Source: a virus
Lineage: Duplodnaviria; Heunggongvirae; Uroviricota; Caudoviricetes
DNA: 64,000 bases
Direction: 5' to 3' (one strand)
Virus record (IMG/VR): IMGVR_UViG_3300037391_000121
In this document: in pieces, positions 3,736 through 56,623 of the stretch
Numbering within the stretch: the stretch's first letter is position 1
Layout of the letters: every line of letters begins with the position of its first letter
The notes under the pieces: model-generated
Told to the model about the DNA's origin: nothing
The model's database searches: none
Seen by the model: the letters and a program-made list of their open reading frames with translations, nothing else
Position numbers and translations under genes: made by a program

Positions 3736-3885
3736 TTACCTCATGCAGTTGCATAATTTTTCCTTGCGCGTGGTGGTCGCTGCCCGAGCGTTCGCGCAGG
3801 TAGTGCAGTGGTAGGTGACGCTGCCATCGTGGTTGTAGACACGCCATTGAGCTTGTTGACCGCACGCACAGATTACTTTTGCCAT
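3736..3885 (-). CDS. small Cys-rich (zinc-ribbon-like) protein, 49 aa; not in the ORF track
   Basis: Own translation: MAKVICACGQQAQWRVYNHDGSVTYHCTTCANARAATTTRKEKLCNCMR. CxC..HCxxC pattern. Overlaps the glycosyltransferase stop by 13 nt in another frame. Confidence 0.3.
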   Translation of the reverse strand: MAKVICACGQQAQWRVYNHDGSVTYHCTTCANARAATTTRKEKLCNCMR

Positions 3886-4520
3886 AGCTTTTGAATTGTC
3901 TCCCACGGTTCAGGTTTGTAATCCTTACTCAGATGCTTCCTGCAAGCATTGGCCGTATGGATCGCCGCTACGACCAAGGCAGGATCGTTCAGATCGTACC
4001 TCGCTGCAACAGGCGTCTTCTTTTGAAAATTGTAGTCGGCTCCCCCAGCGAGATTGTCGAACTTCAAATTCTGCCAAGCGGATTTACGTACCGCTATGGA
4101 TGCGAGCCAACCGATCCCTTTCGGCGTCGTGTATCGGTAAGCTTGCTGGGTGCCGTGCTGATAGTAGTAGAGAGTGCTCGTTCCAGAAAGCTGCAATGCT
4201 GGATTCTCGATGAGCGGCGTGATCTGGCGAGTGATTCGATTTGTGGGATACCAATCATCGTCGTCGAAGACAATCCCGAACTCACCGCTCGCTAATTCAA
4301 AGCAACGATTCATCTTCGCCCCATGGTGTTTTTTGGGCTTTTCATGGAAATATTTGATCCTCGGATCGGTCGGCAGGAGGTTCCCGATTGGGTCTGCGCC
4401 ATCATCCAGTATGATCCATTCCAGATTCGGATAATCTTGCGAGAGGAAGCACTGGATGGCCCGAGGAAAGAAGGCTCGGCGATTAAAAGTCGGCGTTAGT
4501 GCACTTACGAGAGGAGGCAT
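3873..4520 (-). CDS. family-2 (GT-A) glycosyltransferase
   Basis: LVSALTPTFNRRAFFPRAIQCFLSQDYPNLEWIILDDGADP matches the GT2 N-terminal signature with the DD motif. Start taken at internal Met (MPPLVS) because the upstream part of the ORF overlaps the preceding gene. Confidence 0.6.
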   Translation of the reverse strand: MPPLVSALTPTFNRRAFFPRAIQCFLSQDYPNLEWIILDDGADPIGNLLPTDPRIKYFHEKPKKHHGAKMNRCFELASGEFGIVFDDDDWYPTNRITRQITPLIENPALQLSGTSTLYYYQHGTQQAYRYTTPKGIGWLASIAVRKSAWQNLKFDNLAGGADYNFQKKTPVAARYDLNDPALVVAAIHTANACRKHLSKDYKPEPWETIQKLWQK

Positions 4521-4813
4521 TAGTGTTCGATGCACTTTCTCATGATGCCCGCCGTGATCTGAGAGAGCGCGATCACGATAAAGCCCTGCACGATGTGGTC
4601 GATGAAACTTCCACCGAGGGTCTTGTAGTACGCCAGCACGAGCATCGCCGTTACCCAATGACTTACGCACCATGAGCATGACAATAACTGGTCTAAAAAT
4701 GGGAATTTCGGTGCCAACCAGTCGTGGGGTTTAGCAAAAATCTTCCCCTCGGCTACGACCAAACTGATCGCTCCGCAGGCAACGCCTAGTTCAGCCAAAA
4801 ACGTGAGATTCAT
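4520..4813 (-). CDS. small multi-pass membrane protein, 97 aa
   Basis: Two or three hydrophobic helices. Its stop overlaps the glycosyltransferase start by 1 nt. Confidence 0.45.
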   Translation of the reverse strand: MNLTFLAELGVACGAISLVVAEGKIFAKPHDWLAPKFPFLDQLLSCSWCVSHWVTAMLVLAYYKTLGGSFIDHIVQGFIVIALSQITAGIMRKCIEH

Positions 4814-4880: not shown

Positions 4881-7148
4881 TTAGCCGCAGATCGAAGTCT
4901 GTTCTGACCAACGAATCTGTCCAACGGCCTTGGCGCAACCCTTGAAGCTCTTGCCCGCGAGGGTGTAGGTCTTGCCGTTCAAGCAGTCCAAGAGACCGTC
5001 GAAGCTGCGTGGGAAGGCTGCCGCGTAACCAGACCAGACCACCGTGCCGCCAGTGACAGCCGATGCCGTGGTGTCCACGTTGACGTTGCCCGGGCCAGCC
5101 GCGAATGCAGCGCCCGTGAGCGCACCGCCTTCGATAAGCTGGAAGAGAACCGTCGAACCGTCCGTGAAGACCTGAATCTCGCGGAGCAACTGTACGATGG
5201 TTCCGATGCCGTTGCCCTGAATCGACCAGAGCGGAACGAACGCAGTCGTCATGACCTGAGTATCGAACGCTGCACCGCTGTCGTAGCTGTAGTATTGGAT
5301 CGAGCAAGCAAACTGCTCGTCCGCAGGGATGGTGATGAGTGCGCCAGACGGGGCAAGCTGGAGCACCTGCATTGAGCCGAGCGAGAAAGTCTCGGGTCCG
5401 CAAGTGACCGTTGCAATATCGACGCTCAGACCGTTGGTTACATAAACGTCCAGAGCCGCCGTTGCTGGGCTGCCGCTGATCGTGAAGCCAACTGGGGTGC
5501 CCGCGATATCCGTGAGGTTGATGTTGAACGGCGTCGAGCAATCGCCGGGGCAGACATAGATCGGTGTCGAAGGAGTGTTCGTGACCGTTACGGTGCCAGT
5601 GACGCTCACCGTACCCGTGACACTTACCGTGCCGCCCGTCACATCGACGTAGACTGGTGACGAGAAGTCGTTGGTGATGAAGGTGTTGAGCGATTCAACC
5701 GCTGGGCTACCAGAGGTCGTGAAGCTCAACCCGCATACGCTGAGGCAGGTGTTAGTAACGTCAACGTAGATCGGCGTGGTTGGCGTGTTCGAAGTGAGAG
5801 TGACATCGCCGCCCGTAACGAAAACGTTGAGCGAGGATTCCGCAGGGCTTCCAGCAGATGTGAAGGTCGCGCCCGTGATGCCGACAGTCCAAGTTCCAGA
5901 CTGAGTGACGGCTACGGTGCCACTGACCGATACTGTCCAAGCGCCCGACTGTACGGACTCAACTGTCCATGTACCGCACTGCGTGGCGCATACTGTGCCG
6001 CCCGTGCTGTAGACATTGAGCGAAGATACCGCTGGGCTGCCAGCCTCAGTGAAGGATGCTCCGCAAACGTTGAGGCAGGTGTTGGTTACATCGACGTAAA
6101 TCGGAGTCGTCGGTGTGTTCGAAGTGAGGGTAACGTCGCCGCCAGTGACGAAGACATTGAGTGATGCCTCGGCGGGGCTACCAGAGATTGTCGTTCCGAT
6201 TGGAACGCCGCCAACTTCCGTGAGGTTAACAACCCACGGTGATGTGCACTGCGTTACGCAAATTTCGCCGCCAGTGACGAAGGTGTTGAGACCGCACACC
6301 TGAACAGAGGCGCAATCTGGAGTGGTGACGATTTCAGCAGTCGAGATAGTGACCGCGCCATTGTTGGCGAGTGCGCGACCAGTAAGAGTTCCGCCGCCGA
6401 GGGTGACGCTTGCGACAGCGAGGATGGTGCCGACTGTGGTAGCTCCCGGCCCGATGGATGTCCAAGAGCTTCCAGCGACCCAGACGACGTTGCACGCCTG
6501 CGCTCCGTTAGCCAGAAGGATCGTACCAGCGATCTGCTGGGTGATGGTGCTGCCAGCCAAGAACACGAATACCGCATCAGGGTTGCCCTGTGCATCAAGA
6601 GTGATCGGCGTGTCGATTTCGAGACTTGAGCCGCTCGAATAAACGCCCGGGTAGTAAGTGCCGACTGGAGCACCAACGGACATCTGTGTGCCCATGTCCG
6701 CCGTGGTGAGAACTTGTCCCGGTCCAAGACCTTGGTAATAAGTGATTGCCGCTGCGACTGCCGTCTGATCCGCTGCCGTGGCAGTGACTTCAGCCGCAGG
6801 CGGAACGATTACACCGGGAGGGAATCCAGTGATTGAATTTGTTGGGTACGAACCGACGTTACCGCCCGAGATGACCGAGGAACCAGAGTTCGTTACGCCA
6901 CTGTAGCCGAGGAGGGCGTAGGTTGCTGCTGAACCAAGCTGAGCGAGAGTCGGAGAGACTCCACCCGTGCAGGTTGTTCCGACGCCACTGATAGTGACTT
7001 CGGGGATGTTGATGACGCCGACGTTGATCGAGGCAACAGCAGGGCTACCCGAAACTGTTATGAGGGAACAACCCGTAGTATCATCGTAGATACCAAAAAC
7101 GGAGATGCCCGTGTATTGTCCACCCGCACAAGAATTGCAATCTGGCAT
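4881..7148 (-). CDS. large structural protein (tail-fibre/tail-associated), 755 aa
   Basis: Long ORF. Two near-identical ~45-aa repeats (SGSPAEASLNVFVTGGDVTLTSNTPTTPIYVDVTNTCL..), several GSPAxxSLNVxVT motifs, one ICVTQCTSPWVV motif. Confidence 0.6.
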   Translation of the reverse strand: MPDCNSCAGGQYTGISVFGIYDDTTGCSLITVSGSPAVASINVGVINIPEVTISGVGTTCTGGVSPTLAQLGSAATYALLGYSGVTNSGSSVISGGNVGSYPTNSITGFPPGVIVPPAAEVTATAADQTAVAAAITYYQGLGPGQVLTTADMGTQMSVGAPVGTYYPGVYSSGSSLEIDTPITLDAQGNPDAVFVFLAGSTITQQIAGTILLANGAQACNVVWVAGSSWTSIGPGATTVGTILAVASVTLGGGTLTGRALANNGAVTISTAEIVTTPDCASVQVCGLNTFVTGGEICVTQCTSPWVVNLTEVGGVPIGTTISGSPAEASLNVFVTGGDVTLTSNTPTTPIYVDVTNTCLNVCGASFTEAGSPAVSSLNVYSTGGTVCATQCGTWTVESVQSGAWTVSVSGTVAVTQSGTWTVGITGATFTSAGSPAESSLNVFVTGGDVTLTSNTPTTPIYVDVTNTCLSVCGLSFTTSGSPAVESLNTFITNDFSSPVYVDVTGGTVSVTGTVSVTGTVTVTNTPSTPIYVCPGDCSTPFNINLTDIAGTPVGFTISGSPATAALDVYVTNGLSVDIATVTCGPETFSLGSMQVLQLAPSGALITIPADEQFACSIQYYSYDSGAAFDTQVMTTAFVPLWSIQGNGIGTIVQLLREIQVFTDGSTVLFQLIEGGALTGAAFAAGPGNVNVDTTASAVTGGTVVWSGYAAAFPRSFDGLLDCLNGKTYTLAGKSFKGCAKAVGQIRWSEQTSICG
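5700..6230 (-). repeat. intragenic direct repeat pair (~130 nt units, roughly 80% identical by eye) inside the 755-aa gene
   Basis: DNA near 5700-5830 resembles DNA near 6060-6190; protein repeats at about residues 310 and 410. Confidence 0.5.
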
Positions 7149-14286: not shown

Positions 14287-14564
14287 TCAATGAGCTTCTC
14301 GCACTTACGGAGAGGCCCTACGATGAGTACAACACGGTTCTGACCGAAGTCATGACCCGCCTGCCGCTCGACGTGCAGGTGCAGACGTTCCAGCAGGTCT
14401 TAGGGGAAGAGCTTCCCCTGACCACCGCCCGCCGCGCCTATCGCACCGCCATTCGGATAGCAATGGGGCAGGAAGATGTCCACCGTGAGTACCAGCCACA
14501 CGGCCTGCCAAGAAAAATAATTTCAAAAAACAGTTGCCAAAATCGTAAAACTTCCGTATTGTAA
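14262..14564 (+). CDS. hypothetical protein
   Basis: Internal Met (MPAKQ) preceded by AAAGGGG; alternative start at 14244. Confidence 0.35.
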   Translation: MPAKQIPLVNELLALTERPYDEYNTVLTEVMTRLPLDVQVQTFQQVLGEELPLTTARRAYRTAIRIAMGQEDVHREYQPHGLPRKIISKNSCQNRKTSVL

Positions 14565-14621
14565 CTACAGAGAAGCTTTACGGTCGCCCGCAAGGGCTCC
14601 AAAACAATTTCAGAACCTCAC

Positions 14622-14707
14622 GATGGTGTTAGGTTGACGGTTACTTCATTCAACTGAATTCGCCAATGGCGAACTGGGGCTTGCCCCTCTCTGTCTCCGC
14701 TTGTTCC
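14622..14707 (+). ncRNA. degenerate Y-RNA-like element (copy 0)
   Basis: GATGGTGTTAGGTTGACGGTTACTTCA ... TCCGCTTGTTCC resembles the conserved 5' and 3' arms of the better copies. Internal hairpins TTCGCC-AATG-GCGAA and GGGGC-TTG-CCCC. Confidence 0.35.
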
Positions 14708-14710
14708 TCG

Positions 14711-14880
14711 TGGGTTCAATTTGCAAAAGGAGTTGCCCGGGATCATACTGCCGCCTTCGGGCGGGTGTCCCTGATACGTGCAATATTCCTTTCGACGGGT
14801 GGGAAACGTGCCCCGCAGACTGCCAGCCTCGGCTGGGTGTACCTGCGAGGTCCACCCACCGTCGTCCGATTTTAATGTGC
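14711..14880 (+). ncRNA. structured non-coding region (possible additional small RNA or processing signals)
   Basis: Hairpins CCGCC-TTCG-GGCGG, long-range stem CGACGGGTGG...CCACCGTCG, T-loop-like GTGGGTTCAATT, ends GATTTTA just before the next RNA. Confidence 0.3.
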
Positions 14881-14881
14881 T

Positions 14882-15004
14882 GTGGTGTTAGGAAACGGAT
14901 ACTTCTCCTGAAAAGAGGGGGACGTGGGTTCGAGTCCCACTGCCCGTCGCGAGACGGGTATAGCTCAGTGGCAGAGCACCAACCGTGCCGTTCCGCTTGT
15001 TCCC
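14882..15004 (+). ncRNA. YrlA-like Y RNA with circularly permuted tRNA-like module (copy 1)
   Basis: 5' arm GTGGTGTTAGGAAACGGATACTTCT; T-arm GTGGG-TTCGAGT-CCCAC (14924-14940); 8-bp hairpin CCCGTC-GCGA-GACGGG; D-arm TAGCTCAGTGGCAGAGCA; 3' arm CCGTTCCGCTTGTTCCC. Directly upstream of rsr. Confidence 0.6.
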
Positions 15005-15156
15005 AGCACAGTTTTCGCGAAGGTGCCCTTGAGAGGGGCTTAAAGAAGCGTGAGCCGCTTCGCCATCGGGGTAAGGCCGCTACCAAGGGAGGTAGCGGGG
15101 CAACGTGGGCACGCACTCCCACCCTTATCATTGATATTTTGAAGGAGGATACCAGC

Positions 15157-16671
15157 ATGGCATCCGTGAACGCAGTAACTCGACGTATTGGTCCGCAGGT
15201 GCACACCGCACCCGGAGCCACGGCAGCACGCATCAACAAGGCGCTTCAGCTTCAGCGTCTCTTGAACGCTTGCATGTTGTGGGAAGACAATTTCTACATC
15301 GACGGCGAGACCGTCGCTGGCTTGATCCAGAAGCTCGTCCACGAGACTTCCGCAGAGAAGTGTGCGGAACTCGCGGTCAAGGCTCGTAATGAGCAGAAGC
15401 TTCGCCACGCACCGTTGCTCGTAGTGCGTGAGATGGCTCGTGCGTCCGCCGACCACAAGGCACTCGTGGCGGATACGCTGTTCGCCGTCATTCAGCGTCC
15501 TGATGAGATCGCGGAGTTTCTCGCGATTTACTGGAAGGACGGGAAGCAGCCGATCTCCGCTCAGGTGAAGAAGGGCCTCGCTCGCGTGTACAACAAGTTC
15601 TCCGAGTACCAGCTTGCGAAGTGGAACAAGGACAAGGACATCAAGCTGCGTGACGTGGCTTTCTTGACGCACGCAAAGCCGAAGGACAAGGCTCAGGGTC
15701 TTCTGTTGGCGCAATTGGTCAACAAGGATCGCGTGCCCGTGGCAACCCGTGGCGGAAAGTACGACAAGAAGAAGGCCGCTGGGTTCCCGGTCGCGAAGAC
15801 CTACAAGACGCTGGCGAAGAATTTCGTCGGTCTGGCAACGCCCGACACTTGGGAGGTTGCACTCTCTGGTGGGGCAGGCAAGAAGGAGACGTTCACCCGT
15901 ATGCTCGAAGAGGGCACGCTGGGTGCAATCGCCGTCCTGAAGAACCTCCGCAACATGACTCAGGCGGGCGTGTCGAACAGCGTCATCAAGAGCGGTTTGG
16001 CAACCATGAAGACTGAGCGTGTGCTCCCGTTCCGTTTCATCACGGCGGCGAAATATGCCCCGGGATTTGAGTCGGAACTTGAGCAGGCGATGTTCCGTTG
16101 CCTCGCGGGTGCCCCGAAGTTGCTGGGTCGCACTGGTGTTGTGATCGACGTTTCTGGGTCCATGAACGGCAAAGTCTCGGGTAAGTCTGAGCTTGGCCGT
16201 ATCGATGCTGCGGCCTGCATCGCAATGTTGCTTCGTGAGGTTTGCGAGGACGTTGTGATCTACTGCACGGCAGGTAACGACGGCACCCGTATCCACAAGA
16301 CGGAGATGATCCCGTCTCGTCGTGGGTTTGCGTTGCGTGATCTCATCAACCAGTCCGCAGGTCGTTTGGGCGGCGGCGGTATCTTCTTGACGCAGATGAT
16401 GGACTACGTTCGCAAGCATGAGCAGGGCGACTTCGAGCGTATGATCGTCATCACGGATGAGCAGGACTGTGAGCGTGATCCCGCTCGTGCGGCATCGCGT
16501 GCAAACACCTTTGGTGAGCACAACTACCTCATAAACATTGCCAATGAGAAGAACGGAATTGGCTACCGCAAGTGGCATCACATTGATGGATTCAGCGAAG
16601 CCGTCGTCACCTACATCTTCGCGGAAGAGGGCCAGTCCTTCGATTCCGCCGATGAAGACTCACTTAACTAA
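15157..16671 (+). CDS. rsr: Ro60-like protein (Rsr): TROVE domain plus vWA domain
   Basis: ATG after GAAGGAGGA. vWA MIDAS motif VIDVSGSMNG. Size (504 aa) and N-terminal region consistent with a TROVE domain. The tracked ORF start at 14701 is an over-extension across the ncRNA cluster. Confidence 0.75.
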   Translation: MASVNAVTRRIGPQVHTAPGATAARINKALQLQRLLNACMLWEDNFYIDGETVAGLIQKLVHETSAEKCAELAVKARNEQKLRHAPLLVVREMARASADHKALVADTLFAVIQRPDEIAEFLAIYWKDGKQPISAQVKKGLARVYNKFSEYQLAKWNKDKDIKLRDVAFLTHAKPKDKAQGLLLAQLVNKDRVPVATRGGKYDKKKAAGFPVAKTYKTLAKNFVGLATPDTWEVALSGGAGKKETFTRMLEEGTLGAIAVLKNLRNMTQAGVSNSVIKSGLATMKTERVLPFRFITAAKYAPGFESELEQAMFRCLAGAPKLLGRTGVVIDVSGSMNGKVSGKSELGRIDAAACIAMLLREVCEDVVIYCTAGNDGTRIHKTEMIPSRRGFALRDLINQSAGRLGGGGIFLTQMMDYVRKHEQGDFERMIVITDEQDCERDPARAASRANTFGEHNYLINIANEKNGIGYRKWHHIDGFSEAVVTYIFAEEGQSFDSADEDSLN

Positions 16672-16707
16672 TCAGTTCTGGGTTCGTTAACAAACAGATT
16701 AGGTAAC

Positions 16708-16736
16708 TTCCGAACCCCTGAATAGGGGGTTCGGAA
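16708..16736 (+). promoter_or_regulatory. perfect 11-bp stem-loop abutting the HNH start codon
   Basis: TTCCGAACCCC-TGAATA-GGGGGTTCGGAA ends 1 nt before the ATG at 16737. No T-run after it. Confidence 0.5.
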
Positions 16737-17300
16737 ATGATTGGTGAAAGGTTCGGTAGGTACGTCGTTCTCGAAAGAATAGAAGACCACATTACGACTG
16801 GGGGACAGAAATTTTCCCAGTGGAATTGTCGTTGTGACTGTGGCATAGTCAAGCCTGTCCTTGGGGCAAAGCTGAGGAGCGGAAACACAAAAAGTTGTGG
16901 TTGTTTGCGGTTAGAGCGATTGGCGGCGAACAGAAAGATTCTTCCCTCGGGTCAATCTCTACGAAATTCCGTCCACCACACCTACGAACTTCGTGCGGCA
17001 AAAAACCATCTCGTGTGGGAGTTGACAGACGACAAGTTCGACGAGTTGACGCGGGGAGATTGCTACTACTGCGGCTGTCCGCCCGCTAATATGGCGAGTC
17101 GCTCGTTCTTACATGGGGACTTCGTGTACAATGGGATTGACCGAAAAGACAATCTCAAGGGGTACACAACGGATAACACCGTATCTTGTTGCGGCATTTG
17201 CAATAAGATGAAGCGCGATTTGTCGGTTGAAGAATTTCTGAGTCGTGTGAGTTGTATAGCGAAAAGGCACAGCGAATATGGCAAAAGCGAGGCATTATAG
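16737..17300 (+). CDS. HNH homing endonuclease
   Basis: GRYVVLERIED..QWNCRCDCG..SCGC N-terminal zinc region and DRKDNLKGYTTDNTVSCCGICNKMK HNH motif. Confidence 0.7.
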   Translation: MIGERFGRYVVLERIEDHITTGGQKFSQWNCRCDCGIVKPVLGAKLRSGNTKSCGCLRLERLAANRKILPSGQSLRNSVHHTYELRAAKNHLVWELTDDKFDELTRGDCYYCGCPPANMASRSFLHGDFVYNGIDRKDNLKGYTTDNTVSCCGICNKMKRDLSVEEFLSRVSCIAKRHSEYGKSEAL

Positions 17301-18934: not shown

Positions 18935-18948
18935 GCTTGTGTGGGTGG

Positions 18949-19020
18949 TGATTGGAAACGGGTACTTCTTCCTTTAACGAAAGATGCCGAAAGGCTACCC
19001 CGTCCCGCTTGTTCCCCCAC
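18949..19020 (+). ncRNA. YrlB-like short Y RNA without a tRNA-like module (copy 3)
   Basis: GTGGTGATTGGAAACGGGTACTTCT ... hairpin CCTTT..AAAGG ... CCGTCCCGCTTGTTCCC. Confidence 0.5.
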
Positions 19021-19037
19021 CATGTTTCGCCGAGTGG

Positions 19038-19161
19038 TGTTAGGAAACGGGTACTTCTCTCGCCTTGGGAGAGTAGCTCAGCGGTAGAGCGCCTGACTTG
19101 AAATCAGGAGGCCGTTGGTTCGACTCCAACCTCAACTACTCCGTCCCGCTTGTTCCCTCGG
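19038..19161 (+). ncRNA. YrlA-like Y RNA with colinear tRNA-like module (copy 2)
   Basis: 5' arm GTGGTGTTAGGAAACGGGTACTTCT; hairpin CTCTC-GCCTTGG-GAGAG; D-arm TAGCTCAGCGGTAGAGCG; anticodon-like arm CCTGA-CTTGAAA-TCAGG; T-arm GTTGG-TTCGACT-CCAAC; 3' arm CCGTCCCGCTTGTTCCC. The acceptor stem does not pair and there is no CCA. Confidence 0.6.
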
Positions 19162-19180
19162 CATATTTTCTGGAGCTTCA

Positions 19181-24808: not shown

Positions 24809-24968
24809 AATGATTATCGCCGACATGGAAGCTGACTTGGAGTACGGCGAAAGCTTCCCCAACAGCATGAGCAGTCGTGGCGAGGAAGCCATGGAAGACG
24901 GGAAAGTCCAGCTTTTGAGAAAGTATCTGCCCAAGTTGCGGGCGTTAAGGGATCAGAATGGCGAATAA
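24792..24968 (+). CDS. hypothetical acidic protein
   Basis: Internal Met (MATTLEM) overlapping the upstream stop. Confidence 0.35.
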   Translation: MATTLEMIIADMEADLEYGESFPNSMSSRGEEAMEDGKVQLLRKYLPKLRALRDQNGE

Positions 24969-26067
24969 GGGATTCACGGAGACTCGATACGATTACTCGG
25001 CAGGGCGTGACCACGCTCCTGAGCTAACCGTGTGCGTCGGTATCAGTGGTTCTGGGAAGAGCACCGAGGTCATGCAGCGGGTGAAGCGGTCGCAGGGTAA
25101 GACCGTCCGTCTGAACCGTGACAAGATGCGTGAGATGCTGTTCTGCGGTGCGGATTGGAACAAGCACAACGAGAATTTCGTCCGCACTTGGCAGATGGAG
25201 GGGGCTCGTATTGCACTCCAGTCGGGCAAGAACGTGGTCATCGACGACACGAACTGCATCCGCAACACGCGGCAGAAGTGGGAAGAGTTTGCGGTCGAGC
25301 AGAAGGTTAAGCTGTGCTTCTTGGTTATGGACGTTCCGTTGAAGGAGTGTGTTGAGCGGGACATTGCACGCGGAGTTCCGTGCCCGACCTGTGGGACGCC
25401 AAAGGGCGTCATGGTTGGCGAGGAGATCATCCGCCGCCAGTACAAGGATTTGACGAGTTTCAATATGAGCAACCGAGACATGACGCCTACGTCGCCGACG
25501 CGAGCTTGGATGGAGCGTCAGGCCCTCTTGAAGGGCGGGTTCGTGCCTCGTCTTGTGGGGCGTCCGTGGGTGTTGTTTGACATGGACGGCACCGTAGCAG
25601 ATCACCGTGGGCAGCGGAACCCTTACGAGGAGCACAAGGTCACGCTGGACAACTGCTACGAGGTCGTTGCGGAGTGGATTCGGCAGTTGGCTCCGTCGCA
25701 CAACCTTTGCGCGGTTTCAGGCCGTCATGATTTTTGTGGGGATTTGACGTGTGAGTGGTTGGAGGGATACAACGTTCCCTTCGATCATATCCTGATGCGC
25801 TACAACGGGGACAACCGCCCCGACGTGGTGGTCAAGCAGGAAATCCTCAACGAGTTGATCGCCGTCATCGGGAAGGAGAACATCGCATTCGTTCTCGATG
25901 ACCGCCCTCAGGTAGTGAAAATGTGGAGGGCGAATGGGATCAAGGTTTACCCGGTACGCGGTGAGCCGATCCACAGGGCGGGGTGCTCGAACGGCTACGC
26001 GAAGCCGAAGGAAGGCGTGTACATCGGCGGTTTCTGCGGTGAGTGTGGTGCGTTGGAGAACTTCTAG
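24958..26067 (+). CDS. polynucleotide 5'-kinase/3'-phosphatase (T4 Pnkp-like)
   Basis: N-terminal P-loop GISGSGKST. C-terminal HAD motif VLFDMDGTV (DxDGT). Domain order kinase then phosphatase, as in T4 PseT. Confidence 0.7.
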   Translation: MANKGFTETRYDYSAGRDHAPELTVCVGISGSGKSTEVMQRVKRSQGKTVRLNRDKMREMLFCGADWNKHNENFVRTWQMEGARIALQSGKNVVIDDTNCIRNTRQKWEEFAVEQKVKLCFLVMDVPLKECVERDIARGVPCPTCGTPKGVMVGEEIIRRQYKDLTSFNMSNRDMTPTSPTRAWMERQALLKGGFVPRLVGRPWVLFDMDGTVADHRGQRNPYEEHKVTLDNCYEVVAEWIRQLAPSHNLCAVSGRHDFCGDLTCEWLEGYNVPFDHILMRYNGDNRPDVVVKQEILNELIAVIGKENIAFVLDDRPQVVKMWRANGIKVYPVRGEPIHRAGCSNGYAKPKEGVYIGGFCGECGALENF

Positions 26068-31396: not shown

Positions 31397-31618
31397 ATGA
31401 AACTCTACCTCAAAGTTTTACTCATCCTGCTGTTCGCTGTAGCCAACTACTACGGCTTCAAATACAGCGCGTTGGGACTGAACTACCCACACGATGCCGC
31501 TTTTATCGGCGGCTTGTTCGGCCTCGCTACACTGCTCGTCACGGACTTCCTTATCATTCGCAAGGTTGTCCTTAACTTCATCAAAAAGGAAACGCCACAA
31601 ACCAATGAAACCAAGTAA
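31397..31618 (+). CDS. small membrane protein
   Basis: GGAAGGA SD then MKLYLKVLLILLF. Confidence 0.4.
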   Translation: MKLYLKVLLILLFAVANYYGFKYSALGLNYPHDAAFIGGLFGLATLLVTDFLIIRKVVLNFIKKETPQTNETK

Positions 31619-32522
31619 GCTGCTCCTCTCCCTCGCCGTGCTCGCCGTCGCATTCCTGACAGGCTGCACCCGTATCGGCCCCGGTCACGCTGGCATCGTT
31701 GTCAATGCTGCTGGATCGGACAAAGGTGTTTCCCAACAGACCGCCTCGACAGGCTGGTTCTGGTACAACCCATTCACCGAGTCGGTGATTGAGTATCAAA
31801 CGGCCCAACGTCTGGAAAAGTGGACGAAGGACACCAACGAAGGCAAGCCGATCAACGAGGAAGTTTCCTTTACGAACAAGGACTCGATGGTCATCAATGC
31901 CGACGTGGGTATCGCTTTCTCGCTTGACCCCAACAGCGTGCCGAAGTTCTACGTCAAGTTCCTTGCCAAAGACGAAGATGATCTGGACGCGAAGTTCACC
32001 AACGGCTACTTGAAGAACCAAGTGCGAAACTGCCTCAACGAACTTGCTGGGCAGTACGACATCAAGCAGATCATGGGTGACAACGCGGAATTCCTCAAGC
32101 GCACTCACGCCTGCATTCAAGATGACGTGAAGCAATGGGGCGTCAACGTTGACCAGTTCGGTTTAATTGGTGCTCCTCGACCGCCAGAGCAGATCGTGAC
32201 TGCCATCAACGGTAAGGTATCCGCCGAGCAGGACGCGCAACGCAAGGTAATTGAGTTGCAACAGTTCACGGCTGATGCCAACAAAACCGTTGTGCAAGCT
32301 GAGGGTCAGGCCAAGGCACAGGTTGCTCTCGCCAACGGTGAAGCGGAAGCCAACCGCATCCGCAACGCCAGCATCACGGACAACATTCTCAAACTCCGTG
32401 CACTGGAAAACCAGCGAGCGTTGATCGACAAGCTGCAACCCGGAGTATTGCCAAGCACGCTCGTTACGGGCGGCGGAAACAACGTCCCGGGCCTGTTGTT
32501 TCAGGTTCCAGCAGGCAAGTAA
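31605..32522 (+). CDS. SPFH/band-7 (HflK/prohibitin-like) lipoprotein
   Basis: Signal peptide with lipobox LTGC. SPFH-like core. C-terminal QAEGQAKAQVALANGEAEANRIR coiled region. Confidence 0.6.
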   Translation: MKPSKLLLSLAVLAVAFLTGCTRIGPGHAGIVVNAAGSDKGVSQQTASTGWFWYNPFTESVIEYQTAQRLEKWTKDTNEGKPINEEVSFTNKDSMVINADVGIAFSLDPNSVPKFYVKFLAKDEDDLDAKFTNGYLKNQVRNCLNELAGQYDIKQIMGDNAEFLKRTHACIQDDVKQWGVNVDQFGLIGAPRPPEQIVTAINGKVSAEQDAQRKVIELQQFTADANKTVVQAEGQAKAQVALANGEAEANRIRNASITDNILKLRALENQRALIDKLQPGVLPSTLVTGGGNNVPGLLFQVPAGK

Positions 32523-32717: not shown

Positions 32718-32920
32718 TCCGAGCCCTAAAGATCAGCGGCATCCTCCTGACAGTGCTTTTCTGCGTAATCTGCGTGGTGATCGGTTGTCTTGCCTTTGTA
32801 CTTGGGGCGATCAACGACCAGCCCGACGCCTCGGTCTATGGCTTTATCATTGCCGCGTTCTGCGGTTACATGATATTATGTCTCTTTGACCCCCTCAACA
32901 AGGTGATCGATGAAAAATAA
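32702..32920 (+). CDS. small membrane protein, 72 aa
   Basis: Two TM helices. Confidence 0.4.
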   Translation: MVSAIIRALKISGILLTVLFCVICVVIGCLAFVLGAINDQPDASVYGFIIAAFCGYMILCLFDPLNKVIDEK

Positions 32921-33650
32921 GTGGCCCAACGAACTGTTGATTTGCAGGCACGGCGAATCAGAGGCCAACGTCCGCAAGAATGCCGCCAAAGCTAGGGGCG
33001 AGGAGCCCGCGTGGACTGGCGTACTTCGGGATATGGACTCTCCGCTGACAGGATTGGGGCTGCGGCAGGCTTACTCCCTCGGTGTACATCTTCGCCAGCT
33101 ATATCCCGCCACTCTGGGCTACAAGTTCCACAATGTTTGCAAGGGTGGGATGCTGGAATACATCGTCACATCGCCCTACCTTCGCTCGCGACAGACTACG
33201 GCTGAGATCATTCGGGGGCTGGACTACACGCCTGAGGTTGTGGTTGATGAGCGTCTCCGCGAGATTGATTTTGGCATCATGGACGGCATTGACCGAAAGA
33301 AGTTCCGCGAGCTTTTCCCAACCGAGGCTGACCGTCGTGACCGTGACGGTAAATATTGGTATCGCCCGCCCGGTGGCGAGAACCGTCCTGATTGCCGCCT
33401 ACGAGTCCACAGTTTCCTTGACACCCTGAATCGTGATTATGTGGACACCAAGACCTTAATTTCGTGCCATAGCGTCATCGTGCTTGCTTTCCGCAGTCTG
33501 CTCGAACGATGGGGCGAAGCAGAGTATATGCAAGTGGACAAGGAAGACGACGTTAAGAATTGTGGGCTGACCATCTACAAGCGAGAAGACAGGCGGCGGC
33601 TCAAGTTGCAGGAGTACAATACCGTGGCGTTGCCACTAGGGAGTTACTAA
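32910..33650 (+). CDS. histidine phosphatase (phosphoglycerate-mutase family)
   Basis: RHGESEAN catalytic motif near the N-terminus. Confidence 0.6.
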   Translation: MKNKWPNELLICRHGESEANVRKNAAKARGEEPAWTGVLRDMDSPLTGLGLRQAYSLGVHLRQLYPATLGYKFHNVCKGGMLEYIVTSPYLRSRQTTAEIIRGLDYTPEVVVDERLREIDFGIMDGIDRKKFRELFPTEADRRDRDGKYWYRPPGGENRPDCRLRVHSFLDTLNRDYVDTKTLISCHSVIVLAFRSLLERWGEAEYMQVDKEDDVKNCGLTIYKREDRRRLKLQEYNTVALPLGSY

Positions 33651-55281: not shown

Positions 55282-55977
55282 ATGTCCAATTGGTTTGATG
55301 CAGTTCCGATGACGCAGGTTGACCATCGCCTCTGGGTGGGTGGGTACATTCAGGCCGCTATGTTGGCGACCGATAATCCCAAGGGAATTACCGCCGTCCT
55401 GAACGTCAGCACCGAACCGCCTTACGCTCAGAACCCCCAAGTCATCTATCGGCACATCCCGTTCCACGATGGACAGGAAATTCCCCGCCGCCAATTTGCG
55501 GAGTGCCTCGGCTGGCTCAAGTTCATGTACGAGACGGGACACATCATTCTCATCCATTGTGCGGCTGGCATCTCCCGCTCGCCCACCATCACGGCGTCTT
55601 TCATGGACTACATCGGTATCGCGGACTTCGACACGGCATTGGATCGTATCCGCATGGCTCGCCCAATTGCCAGTCCCGCCCCTGCGGTATTGGTAAGCGC
55701 CAAGCAGATGTTGGGGGTTTGGCCCTACGATGGCAGCATGGGACAGATGCCCGAGCACGAGCGTACTATGCACGAAGTCATCGAGCAGGTGATGAGTAAG
55801 CGGGCGGCAGGTGCCCATCCCGACGAAAACTGCCCGATGAAGCAATTCTTGCTCACGCAAGATGTTGAAGACAACAGGCCCCGACATCTGATACAATGCA
55901 CTTGTGAGAAGCTTCTCGACCCATTGGAGGTTGCGAGGCTCGAAGACGGACAAATAGGTGGACTCTATGGCGATTGA
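55282..55977 (+). CDS. dual-specificity/tyrosine protein phosphatase-family enzyme
   Basis: CX5R active-site loop IHCAAGISRS. Confidence 0.6.
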   Translation: MSNWFDAVPMTQVDHRLWVGGYIQAAMLATDNPKGITAVLNVSTEPPYAQNPQVIYRHIPFHDGQEIPRRQFAECLGWLKFMYETGHIILIHCAAGISRSPTITASFMDYIGIADFDTALDRIRMARPIASPAPAVLVSAKQMLGVWPYDGSMGQMPEHERTMHEVIEQVMSKRAAGAHPDENCPMKQFLLTQDVEDNRPRHLIQCTCEKLLDPLEVARLEDGQIGGLYGD

Positions 55978-56623
55978 AGGACAGTTAATTCAGCAGATGG
56001 ATTTGAACGGCATCAGTGAGGCCAATCAGGAGCGCATCTTCGACTACCTGAAGGTTCTTAACGACAAAGACCCAGCTACCTGCCAGCATTCGATGCGGGT
56101 CGCCGTCCTAGCGGGCGCTATCGCTCGCACCGCCGCCATTCCCGGCATCACCCCCAAGGTGCTGCTCTGGGCGGGTGCACTGCACGACATCGGCAAAGTT
56201 GCCATCCCCCTCGAAACTCTCGCTAAAACTGCAAAATTCACCAAGAAAGACATGAAGGCGATGGAGCCTCACGTCATCCTCGGCTGGACGATGCTCGACA
56301 AGCTGCATGACTTCACCGCCGCCATCATCGTGCGGCACCACCAGTTCGGTCCCAAGCCATATCCCGCGAAGCTGCCAGCCCTCCCCGAGTGGTTGGAACC
56401 CAAGAAAGAGTTCATCGACGGGGCAGCCCGCCTGCTGGCTCTGGCGGACTACTACGACGCCCTGATGAACCGCAAGAACGACAAGAGCAAGAAGGGTAAG
56501 GGCAAGGCGAAGAAGGAACTTACGGGGTACGAAAAGCACCAGCAGTTCTATCAGGACAACGCCGACAAAGGCCGCTTGATTCAAACGCTGGAAGAGGTTG
56601 GCATCCTTAGGTTTCCTGAGTAA
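55958..56623 (+). CDS. HD-domain phosphohydrolase
   Basis: QHSMRVAVLAG (His), LWAGALHDIGK (HD), IIVRHHQFG. Confidence 0.55.
   Translation: MDSMAIEGQLIQQMDLNGISEANQERIFDYLKVLNDKDPATCQHSMRVAVLAGAIARTAAIPGITPKVLLWAGALHDIGKVAIPLETLAKTAKFTKKDMKAMEPHVILGWTMLDKLHDFTAAIIVRHHQFGPKPYPAKLPALPEWLEPKKEFIDGAARLLALADYYDALMNRKNDKSKKGKGKAKKELTGYEKHQQFYQDNADKGRLIQTLEEVGILRFPE

Follow-up and report, generated by a model that had tools for sequence, protein, structure and literature searches.

A probable YrlA-class Y RNA with a permuted tRNA-like module upstream of a phage Ro60 gene

The stretch of DNA analysed here (the window) comprises the 64,000 nt of IMG/VR record IMGVR_UViG_3300037391_000121, a virus of the class Caudoviricetes; coordinates are those of its plus strand. 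At 14877-15012 (+) it encodes an RNA, Y RNA copy 1, that lies upstream of rsr, the gene for a 504-aa Ro60/TROVE protein (15157-16671, +). An initial annotation, made from the letters alone, had located the RNA but placed it at 14882-15004, which cuts five nucleotides from each strand of the terminal helix. The rsr start codon, ATG 15157, lies 145 nt downstream of the RNA on the same strand and is preceded by the ribosome-binding site GAAGGAGGA. The protein is the presumed partner of the RNA, and its gene at this position bears out the identification of the element as a Y RNA. With a probability of about 0.9, copy 1 is a phage member of the YrlA class of Y RNAs, with a known and already published architecture: the member is new, the architecture was described in 2014-2018.

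The Rsr protein matches the Pfam TROVE family (E 2.2e-9) and solved TROVE proteins (9l5y/9kop) over residues 18-487. Among the best 25 of 87 matching phage records, which include Brevundimonas, Xanthomonas, Caulobacter, and other phages, identity is 37%-43%, and in 71 phage records the match spans at least 80% of the protein. Its vWA MIDAS motif reads DVSGSM, and the DxSxS residues (D331, S333, and S335) are invariant in an alignment of 11 proteins. The longest open reading frame (ORF) that can be drawn mechanically for rsr, 14701-16671 (+), starts at TTG 14701 and spans the whole YrlA-like RNA. Judged from the ribosome-binding site, the fit to homologue N termini, and a position downstream of frame-breaking indels relative to the closest relative (L014; 85% Rsr identity), the true start is ATG 15157. 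Between the window and this relative, the RNA region differs by four single-base indels and by paired stem substitutions, which together rule out coding through it; the T stem changes from GUGGG/CCCAC to GCAGG/CCUGU, and the acceptor-like stem is altered in length. The same trap—an ORF annotated through a Y RNA—has been reported for M. smegmatis.

The two ends of copy 1 pair with each other. The terminal helix begins with GUGCUG (14877-14882), the partner of CAGCAC at 15004-15009, and is followed by GGUGUUAGG (14884-14892), the 5′ strand of the presumed Ro60/Rsr-binding motif. This segment aligns to the family block GGYGNNRG and is identical or near-identical across all four Y scaffolds of the window; that it binds Rsr is probable by analogy with the homologues of Chen and colleagues (2014). 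An inner helix pairs AACGG (14894-14898) with CCGUU (14988-14992). The 3′ strand of the Ro-binding stem as a whole (14988-15009) thus consists of CCGUU, CCGCUUGUUCC (14993-15003), and CAGCAC; in the seed alignment described below, TTGTTCC within it shows little or no variation, and conservation along the 3′ strand CUUGUUCC equals that of the 5′ strand. Next to the inner helix stands AUAC (14899-14902), the counterpart of the YUAY motif conserved in YrlA RNAs (Chen 2014, PMC4201824; Wang 2018, 10.1101/312249), and in this region T24, C26, T28, and C29 of the seed alignment are invariant.

Within this stem lies a module with the parts of a tRNA. A hairpin, UUCUC-CUGAAAA-GAGGG (14903-14919), with a 5-bp stem and a 7-nt anticodon-like loop, corresponds to the published 'V' arm and leads into a linker, GGAC (14920-14923), the equivalent of a tRNA variable loop; its C14923 takes position 48, the Levitt partner of G15 (G14968). 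The T arm, GUGGG-UUCGAGU-CCCAC (14924-14940; GTGGG-TTCGAGT-CCCAC in DNA letters), is followed by an acceptor-like stem (AS) that is closed by a GNRA loop, UGCCCGUC-GCGA-GACGGGUA (14941-14960). Written as DNA this is TGCCCGTC-GCGA-GACGGGTA, its 8 bp comprising six Watson-Crick pairs, a G.U, and a U-A. A UA dinucleotide (14961-14962), equivalent to U8-A9 of tRNA and with a conserved role described by Wang and colleagues (2018; 10.1101/312249), separates the AS from the D arm, GCUC-AGUGGCA-GAGC (14963-14977), in which A14, G15, G18, and G19 are all present. A second linker, ACCAACCGUG (14978-14987), connects the D arm to the inner helix; its length varies in homologues, with only RCC conserved, and in the minimum free energy (MFE) structure its last three nucleotides, GUG, pair with UAC at 14900-14902 and so extend the inner helix. 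The T arm, the 8-bp GNRA-closed stem, and the D arm stand in the DNA letter for letter as first quoted; the parts list given with them was incomplete, having missed the hairpin at 14903-14919 and the linker of 7-10 nt after the D arm.

Folding recovers the same structure. The core alone (14924-14978) gives exactly the T, AS, and D hairpins at -26.7 kcal/mol and 74% of the ensemble (z -3.36; 0 of 200 shuffles as good). All three hairpins are likewise contained in the MFE structure of the complete RNA (14877-15012; -58.3 kcal/mol, z -3.23, 0 of 200 shuffles), and in the unconstrained ensemble the pair probabilities are 0.97 for the T stem, 0.82-1.0 for the AS, and 0.89 for the D stem. Folding 14880-15011 instead removes the D hairpin from the MFE structure, a boundary artefact of truncating the terminal helix, as the hairpin is restored with the full helix. 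For the 14903-14919 hairpin, RNAfold shifts the register by one (7 bp and a 6-nt loop); the 5-bp/7-nt register expected from homology is the one that covariation supports.

Homologues were collected by scanning with the Rsr protein, which identified 10 viral, 2 genome, and 80 metagenome loci (L001-L092); the genome contigs yielded only those 2. Sixteen sequences upstream of Rsr genes formed the seed alignment (A2), from which RNAalifold recovered the terminal stem, T arm, AS, and D arm, with double changes in 15 of 21 pairs. A covariance model built on this alignment (R1) returned 208 Y-scaffold matches in 93 sources—all on the Rsr strand, often two to four per locus, and commonly arranged in tandem ahead of rsr. 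A larger alignment (A4) was made from the 79 matches whose E values are below 1e-12, which lie upstream of Rsr genes; in it, standard pairs fill 97.3% of cells, against 77% in shuffles and 38%-44% when pairing partners are slid. Eighteen of the 21 pairs have changed on both sides, and none of 500 shuffles attains any of the observed measures. By helix, 99.5% of cells are paired in the T stem (double changes in 4/5 pairs), 96.5% in the AS (4/4 of the modelled, proximal pairs), and 96.8% in the D stem (3/4 pairs), and pairs 1-6 of the terminal helix covary strongly. For the inner helix, over 76 homologues, the cognate 5′ and 3′ segments pair with a mean of -10.1 kcal/mol, non-cognate ones with -6.2 kcal/mol.

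The nucleotides that form the elbow of a tRNA are kept in the same alignment. The Levitt pair 15:48 covaries, being G:C in 56 of the 79 homologues, as in the window, A:U in 19, and something else in 4. A14 is present in all 79 and the GG of the D loop in 73, while the T loop reads UUCGA(A/G/U)U in 66. Between AS and D arm, UA is found in 68 and U at the first position in 77. The AS itself varies from 3 to 12 bp, mostly 6-7, and ends in a GNRA loop in 19. The order of T arm, closed acceptor-like hairpin, and D arm is therefore upheld by folding and by covariation, and a tRNA-like tertiary fold by an invariant A14 and a covarying 15:48; of the outcomes named beforehand as fatal to the proposal—segments that fail to form independent hairpins, or homologues that lack compensatory changes—neither was found.

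Among viral relatives the closest, L001/L002 (60% Rsr identity), has retained the T arm and AS, but its D arm has degenerated to GGCGCGGGCCUAGUC. An identical Rsr protein occurs on four metagenome contigs, whose two Y RNA regions are 100% identical to those of the window and hence offer no microdiversity from which to read covariation. Megablast of 14300-17000 against 50,697 phage records gave no matches, nor did an exact-pattern scan of IMG/VR for GGTGWTWGGAAACGGRTACTTC.

The YrlA class was defined by Chen and colleagues (2014; PMC4201824) as Y RNAs near a Ro60 gene and on its strand, and YrlA RNAs were found in 22 phages in that study. Copy 1 ends at 15012, well within about 4 kb of the same-strand rsr ATG at 15157. 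It carries the near-invariant T stem-loop (T-loop UUCRANY), a closed AS of the kind that varies in length and sequence between T and D arms, and, 3′ of the AS and preceded by UA, a D arm with A14, R15, G18, and G19; the Levitt pair 15:48 is compensatory, and the end-pairing stem is present and covaries. Support that does not depend on R1 comes from the Rfam YrlA model, which aligns to 14917-14980 (29.4 bits, E 3.9e-4), and from a blastn match of this stretch to a tRNA-tRNA junction, described below. No match to the tRNA family RF00005 occurs at 14877-15012, and the acceptor closed by GCGA and the order T-AS-D are not those of a canonical tRNA. The crystal structure of Salmonella YrlA (Wang 2018, 10.1101/312249; PDB 6CU1) is L-shaped with a conserved elbow, and copy 1 shares the architecture described there and by Chen and colleagues (2014). 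Wang and colleagues also explicitly set YrlA beside circularly permuted tRNAs, referred to a model that derives it from a dimeric tRNA transcript, and raised further processing of YrlA as a possibility (10.1101/312249). The reading of copy 1 as a circularly permuted tRNA-like module is in this sense supported, and was already in print.

Salmonella YrlA is the best-studied counterpart. It too lies beside rsr on the same strand, with ends that form the Ro stem, the order T arm, closed AS, UA, and D arm, and conserved elbow nucleotides and YUAY-type motif; it receives a TruB-dependent pseudouridine 55 and a DusA-dependent dihydrouridine (Chen 2014, PMC4201824). Within the class, Rsr binding and these modifications have been demonstrated for RNAs of Salmonella, D. 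radiodurans, and M. smegmatis only. Its AS is 6 bp, however, compared with the 8 bp and GCGA loop of copy 1, and its 5′ and 3′ strands form an 'anticodon stem' by pairing directly beside the D and T arms. In copy 1 the T arm is instead preceded by the local 5-bp/7-nt hairpin and a 4-nt linker, and 7-10 nt of single strand follow the D arm; in addition, the Ro motif of copy 1 is GGUGUUAGG, the 3′ strand CUUGUUCC is conserved as well, and the RNA is phage-encoded, with no rtcBA or RtcR context. The proposal that the Ro-binding helix takes the place of the anticodon stem therefore matches the published picture for Salmonella but is not established for this lineage, where the 14903-14919 hairpin had been overlooked.

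The YrlA RNAs of M. smegmatis and cluster-C mycobacteriophages resemble copy 1 in lying upstream of rsr, in being co-transcribed with YrlB, and in having a 'V' stem-loop before the T arm, whereas the AS of M. smegmatis YrlA is 7 bp and identity to copy 1 is low outside the T and D arms. Mycobacterium phage Phabba (L098, ~2473-2615) has an unannotated YrlA-like element with the hairpin and linker AUCUC-CUGUCAA-GAGGG-UGGUC, situated within a tRNA array between tRNA-Val and tRNA-Glu. M. smegmatis YrlA is cleaved by RNase P and CCA-tailed (Chen 2014, PMC4201824); this route would be less likely for copy 1, given its 8-bp AS and a paired nucleotide at -1. Yrn1 of D. radiodurans likewise joins a Ro stem to a module with tRNA features, including a T arm with pseudouridine, and tethers Rsr to PNPase, but its order is D-like, anticodon-like, and T, without a closed acceptor (PMC4201824); in copy 1, T precedes D, the YrlA order. 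The tRNA-like domain of tmRNA and the tRNA-like structure of TYMV are L-shaped mimics that also work through T-loop/D-loop contacts, yet both have a free CCA and are aminoacylated; a weak local Rfam match to tmRNA covers the T arm of copy 1. A further mimic is the b7a-tRNA predicted for Band-7/RtcB loci, which is described as a near-authentic, unpermuted tRNA; it has been suggested that it and YrlA can replace each other in RNA-repair loci (10.1101/312249).

The module has a counterpart among ordinary tRNA genes. By blastn, 14917-14980 is 82% identical (E 5e-6) to a tRNA-fMet/tRNA-Ile junction in Stenotrophomonas phage vB_Sm_QDWS359 (L097), and the T arm of copy 1 is identical at 17/17 positions to that of the phage tRNA-fMet. 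The two are collinear: the module parallels tRNA-fMet from its anticodon arm through variable loop and T arm to the acceptor 3′ strand and, after a 6-nt spacer, continues along the tRNA-Ile acceptor 5′ strand, UA, and D arm. This arrangement, with the tRNA arrays that flank many Rsr loci, could be taken to mean that copy 1 is a functionless, decayed tRNA-tRNA junction pseudogene whose resemblance to a Y RNA is incidental. Such a relic would not retain 97% pairing, double changes at 18 of 21 pairs, and a covarying tertiary pair over 79 loci, nor would it lie consistently on the Rsr strand upstream of rsr or inside the conserved Ro stem that four paralogues of this genome share; the pseudogene explanation is exceedingly unlikely, and the likeness to a tRNA dimer is better taken as the evolutionary origin of the YrlA class, with which the collinearity fits.

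In the collinear alignment, the hairpin at 14903-14919 falls on an anticodon arm. A perfect 5-bp/7-nt hairpin precedes the T arm in 35 of the 79 homologues, separated from the T stem by 4-5 nt in 33 of these. The loop follows the consensus C(32/35)-U(29/35)-N-N-N-R(34/35)-A(28/35), the middle triplet varying between relatives, and stem pairs 3-5 covary (CG/UA/AU; GC/CG/UA; CG/AU/UA/GC). Hairpin and linker together have the geometry of an anticodon arm plus variable loop. These features suggest, from sequence comparison, that the 'V' hairpin descends from an anticodon arm, in which case the break of the permuted module may lie at the junction of D and anticodon arms, position 26/27. About half of the family is without an anticodon-like hairpin; in many of the remaining A4 sequences, by inspection, a UCCGA 5 nt before the T stem pairs with a UCGGA right after the D stem, a two-strand 'anticodon stem' as in Salmonella.

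The same geometry misleads tRNA finders. ARAGORN places a 'tRNA-Phe GAA' at 14875-14948, a false positive that uses a strand of the Ro stem as its D arm. It calls the 5′ two-thirds of YrlA-like RNAs tRNA genes both here and at other loci (L004, L023, L034, L039, L044, L079, L080, and L090), as Asn, Ile, Gln, or Asp elsewhere, misled by the tRNA geometry of hairpin, linker, and T arm, and is a systematic source of false tRNA annotations beside Ro60 genes.

When the arms are re-joined so as to undo the permutation, ARAGORN calls a full-length tRNA-Phe GAA for copy 1, and the 14903-14919 loop indeed reads C-U-GAA-A-A. Copy 1 might on these grounds be a genuine circularly permuted tRNA gene, whose transcript would close into a circle at the extended stem and then be cut in the acceptor loop, yielding a functional tRNA-Phe(GAA); the RNase P cut and CCA tail of M. 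smegmatis YrlA, and the further processing considered by Wang and colleagues (2018), would be in keeping with such a fate. The permuted tRNA genes of Cyanidioschyzon merolae and Thermofilum pendens do share with it an acceptor that is closed at first, T before D, and transcript ends that pair. Their precursors, however, are spliced, circularised, and opened into functional tRNAs, whereas copy 1 has no bulge-helix-bulge motif, no encoded CCA, an AS of variable length (8 bp here, 3-12 bp among homologues), and an outer stem that is a conserved protein-binding motif; this motif is kept in four paralogues and 79 homologues, although it would be superfluous in a segment to be spliced out. The re-joining test is lenient and hence weak evidence, barely discriminating between 67 of 79 homologues called as tRNA and 52 of 79 controls with a shuffled hairpin. 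Furthermore, about half of the family lacks the anticodon-like hairpin, the location is always beside rsr, and no bacterial splicing endonucleases are known (10.1101/312249). A functional permuted tRNA gene is, on balance, extremely improbable.

Copy 1 is one of four Y scaffolds in the window. R1 detects three others with the same Ro motif, and their terminal helices differ by compensatory changes. The first Y RNA of the operon, at 14618-14716 (+), is YrlB-like (GGUGUUAGG ... CCGCUUGUUCC; R1 29.3 bits, E 3.9e-5); its MFE structure has the terminal stem and three small hairpins and lacks both T and D arms, a layout found with other stem sequences in L001. A third, short scaffold at 18940-19024 (+) has two small hairpins (GGUGAUUGG ... 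CCCGCUUGUUCC; R1 32.3 bits, E 7.4e-6). Both YrlB-like scaffolds share a GGUG(U/A)U(A/U)GG ... CGCUUGUUCC stem with non-tRNA hairpins inside, and each stands immediately 5′ of a tRNA-like Y RNA, so that the genome holds two YrlB-like/tRNA-like pairs.

The fourth scaffold, at 19029-19165 (+; R1 36.3 bits), holds a tRNA-like module in standard arm order inside the Ro stem. It consists of a leader-closed acceptor hairpin (19055-19073), a D arm, an anticodon arm (19092-19108), and a T arm (19114-19130), and encloses the sole match of the whole window at Rfam gathering thresholds, to tRNA, at 19067-19138 (66.6 bits). The leader UUCUCUC pairs perfectly over 7 bp with the acceptor 5′ strand GGGAGAG, while pairing with the 3′ strand has 2 mismatches; alongside a UGA (Ser) anticodon, the module has a short variable loop. 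The order of closed acceptor, D, anticodon, and T resembles the Yrn1 orientation, albeit with a far better tRNA match than Yrn1. The same design occurs in two unrelated viral contigs, L181 (5053-5193, +) and L207 (~3960-4130, -), where the leader and acceptor sequences differ yet stay complementary; the L207 copy lies beside an Rsr gene.

The two tRNA-like scaffolds invite a bolder interpretation. If the hairpin 5′ of the T arm is a retained anticodon arm, copy 1 would be a four-arm cloverleaf with a closed acceptor, broken at 26/27, and 19029-19165 a second permutation, broken at 65/66; Rsr would then carry a panel of closed tRNA look-alikes with uncleavable ends and exposed anticodon-like loops. 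Two permutations on one Ro scaffold are argued here from geometry and homology, and the interpretation is speculative and, as it stands, unlikely to be right. Were it true, a role as decoys or damage sensors could follow, aimed at nucleases that attack anticodons or at defence enzymes that modify tRNA.

The region from the candidate promoter to rsr bears on whether copy 1 acts as a free RNA. A sigma-70-like candidate, TTGCCA-17-TATTGT at 14534-14562 (+), is the putative promoter of the Y RNA/rsr unit. Its fit to the consensus is weak; L001 has TTGACA-17-TATTAC at this position, and window and L014 hardly differ over this block. No intrinsic terminator lies between the RNA and rsr, 145 nt apart, and the RNA stands within a conserved, highly structured leader of 590 nt, as might be expected of a mainly cis-acting element that senses uncharged or damaged tRNA pools, or autoregulates through Rsr, and is not a free Y RNA. 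Against such a leader speak the counterparts in M. smegmatis and D. radiodurans, which are processed and accumulate as Rsr-bound ribonucleoproteins (PMC4201824). A further pair of Y scaffolds, at 18940-19165, does not precede rsr, and the YrlA-like RNAs of other loci lie up to ~1 kb upstream of rsr or, in L022, downstream. A chiefly cis-acting role is thus very unlikely.

Several other elements were seen in the leader. Between the two Y RNAs, a tandem small motif, ACUGCC-[hairpin]-GGGUGU(A/C)CC, occurs at 14747-14771 and 14819-14843 (+) (2 copies against 0.07 expected), the second inside a stable 73-nt stem at 14794-14866 (z -2.7). It is kept in L014 with compensatory hairpin changes, is absent from L001, and has no Rfam match. 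The 5′ untranslated region of rsr (15017-15125, +) contains GCCGCUACC-AAGGGA-GGUAGCGG and then GUGGG-CACGCACU-CCCAC, almost invariant relative to L014, where the second stem GUGGG/CCCAC becomes GCAGG/CCUGC, mirroring the change in the YrlA T stem. A block of ~50 nt (AAGGUGCCCUUGAGAGGGGCUUAAAGA...) that precedes this element in the window comes after it in L014, a reordering that suggests module shuffling.

A mechanism can be proposed for copy 1 as a YrlA-class RNA. Transcription would probably start from 14534-14562, jointly with the YrlB-like RNA (14618-14716) and the rsr mRNA, and copy 1 would then be excised from the precursor, by analogy with M. smegmatis and D. radiodurans. Its ends would pair into the bulged helix whose GGUGUUAGG/CGCUUGUUCC motif offers a docking site for the phage Ro60/Rsr ring. 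Away from this helix, the predicted module runs through the anticodon-like or 'V' hairpin, the 4-nt variable-loop equivalent ending in C48, the T arm, the GCGA-closed stem, U8-A9, and the D arm. The D and T loops hold all of the tRNA elbow nucleotides (U8:A14, G15:C48, G18:U55, G19:C56, and U54:A58), from which, together with the covarying 15:48, the module should fold as a tRNA L-shape and should be recognised by host TruB, TrmA, and Dus enzymes, as its relatives are. The RNA may tether or gate Rsr, as homologues do, while the tRNA-shaped end might recruit an elbow-binding effector (PNPase or an RNA-repair or RNA-decay factor) and shield the RNA from nucleases; PNPase is the effector in D. 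radiodurans and Salmonella. Together with the phage polynucleotide kinase/phosphatase described below, the likely use would be RNA quality control or repair during infection.

The surrounding genome gives some context for this proposal. The window resembles part of a large phage, with mostly short ORFs without family matches. Four genes nevertheless belong to a set tied in the literature to RNA repair and tRNA-like RNAs: a T4-type polynucleotide kinase/phosphatase (PNKP; 24958-26067), a Band-7/SPFH protein (31494-32522), a histidine phosphatase (32910-33650), and an HD-domain protein (55958-56623). PNKP and Band-7 hint at an RNA-repair or conflict setting. A SNF2 helicase and ThyX were also found (Pfam and PHROGs). 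Elsewhere, a 755-aa ORF at 4881-7148 (-), in a block of large minus-strand ORFs without other family matches, contains an ice-binding-like domain (Pfam PF11999, E 3.6e-35), and an ARAGORN 'tRNA-Phe aaa' at 4450-4545 is spurious, overlapping a glycosyltransferase ORF (3873-4679) on the opposite strand. Long tRNA arrays lie just beyond rsr in L020, L021, L032, L067, and L076.

A number of points weigh against the YrlA assignment and the role proposed for copy 1. The Rfam YrlA model, RF02553, aligns to 14917-14980 only locally, at model positions 24-84 of 114, and its 29.4 bits (E 3.9e-4) are far below the gathering score of 69; that score is an operational threshold and not a structural criterion, and the model mismatches the Ro stem and V hairpin here. 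The 5′ motif GGUGUUAGG departs from the published GNCGAA(N)G: it is position-equivalent to GNCGAA(N0-1)G and not a literal match, the relatives reading GGCGUAG or GGUGAAG. The A4 alignment used for the pair counts was fitted to R1, and the 116-bit score from R1 is not independent, because the window sequence is in the seed. Promoter-like sites in the region are no commoner than in shuffles. Pfam and PHROGs searches of ~46 ORFs of the 64 kb found no RNA ligase (RtcB/Rnl), which leaves the link to repair weak, and the literature names no established YrlA effector. Finally, whereas the sequence, fold, covariation, and rsr synteny of copy 1 were observed directly, its expression, processing, Rsr binding, and modification are argued from homologues.

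Copy 1 amounts to a rediscovery of the YrlA tRNA-like domain, and contributes a firmly supported phage RNA to the class without introducing a new principle. Its value lies partly in what current annotation overlooks: the Rfam YrlA model misses a large environmental and phage clade (29 bits for copy 1 against a threshold of 69), whereas R1 made 208 Y-scaffold matches across 92 Rsr loci; tRNA finders miscall such RNAs as tRNA genes, and gene callers extend rsr ORFs across them. In this clade the proposed descent of YrlA from a tRNA dimer is also seen with unusual clarity. In this one phage genome, four paralogous Ro-binding scaffolds carry four effector modules, two of them tRNA-like and in different arm orders, which makes the genome a compact model in which to learn what is recruited by the tRNA-shaped end of a Y RNA.

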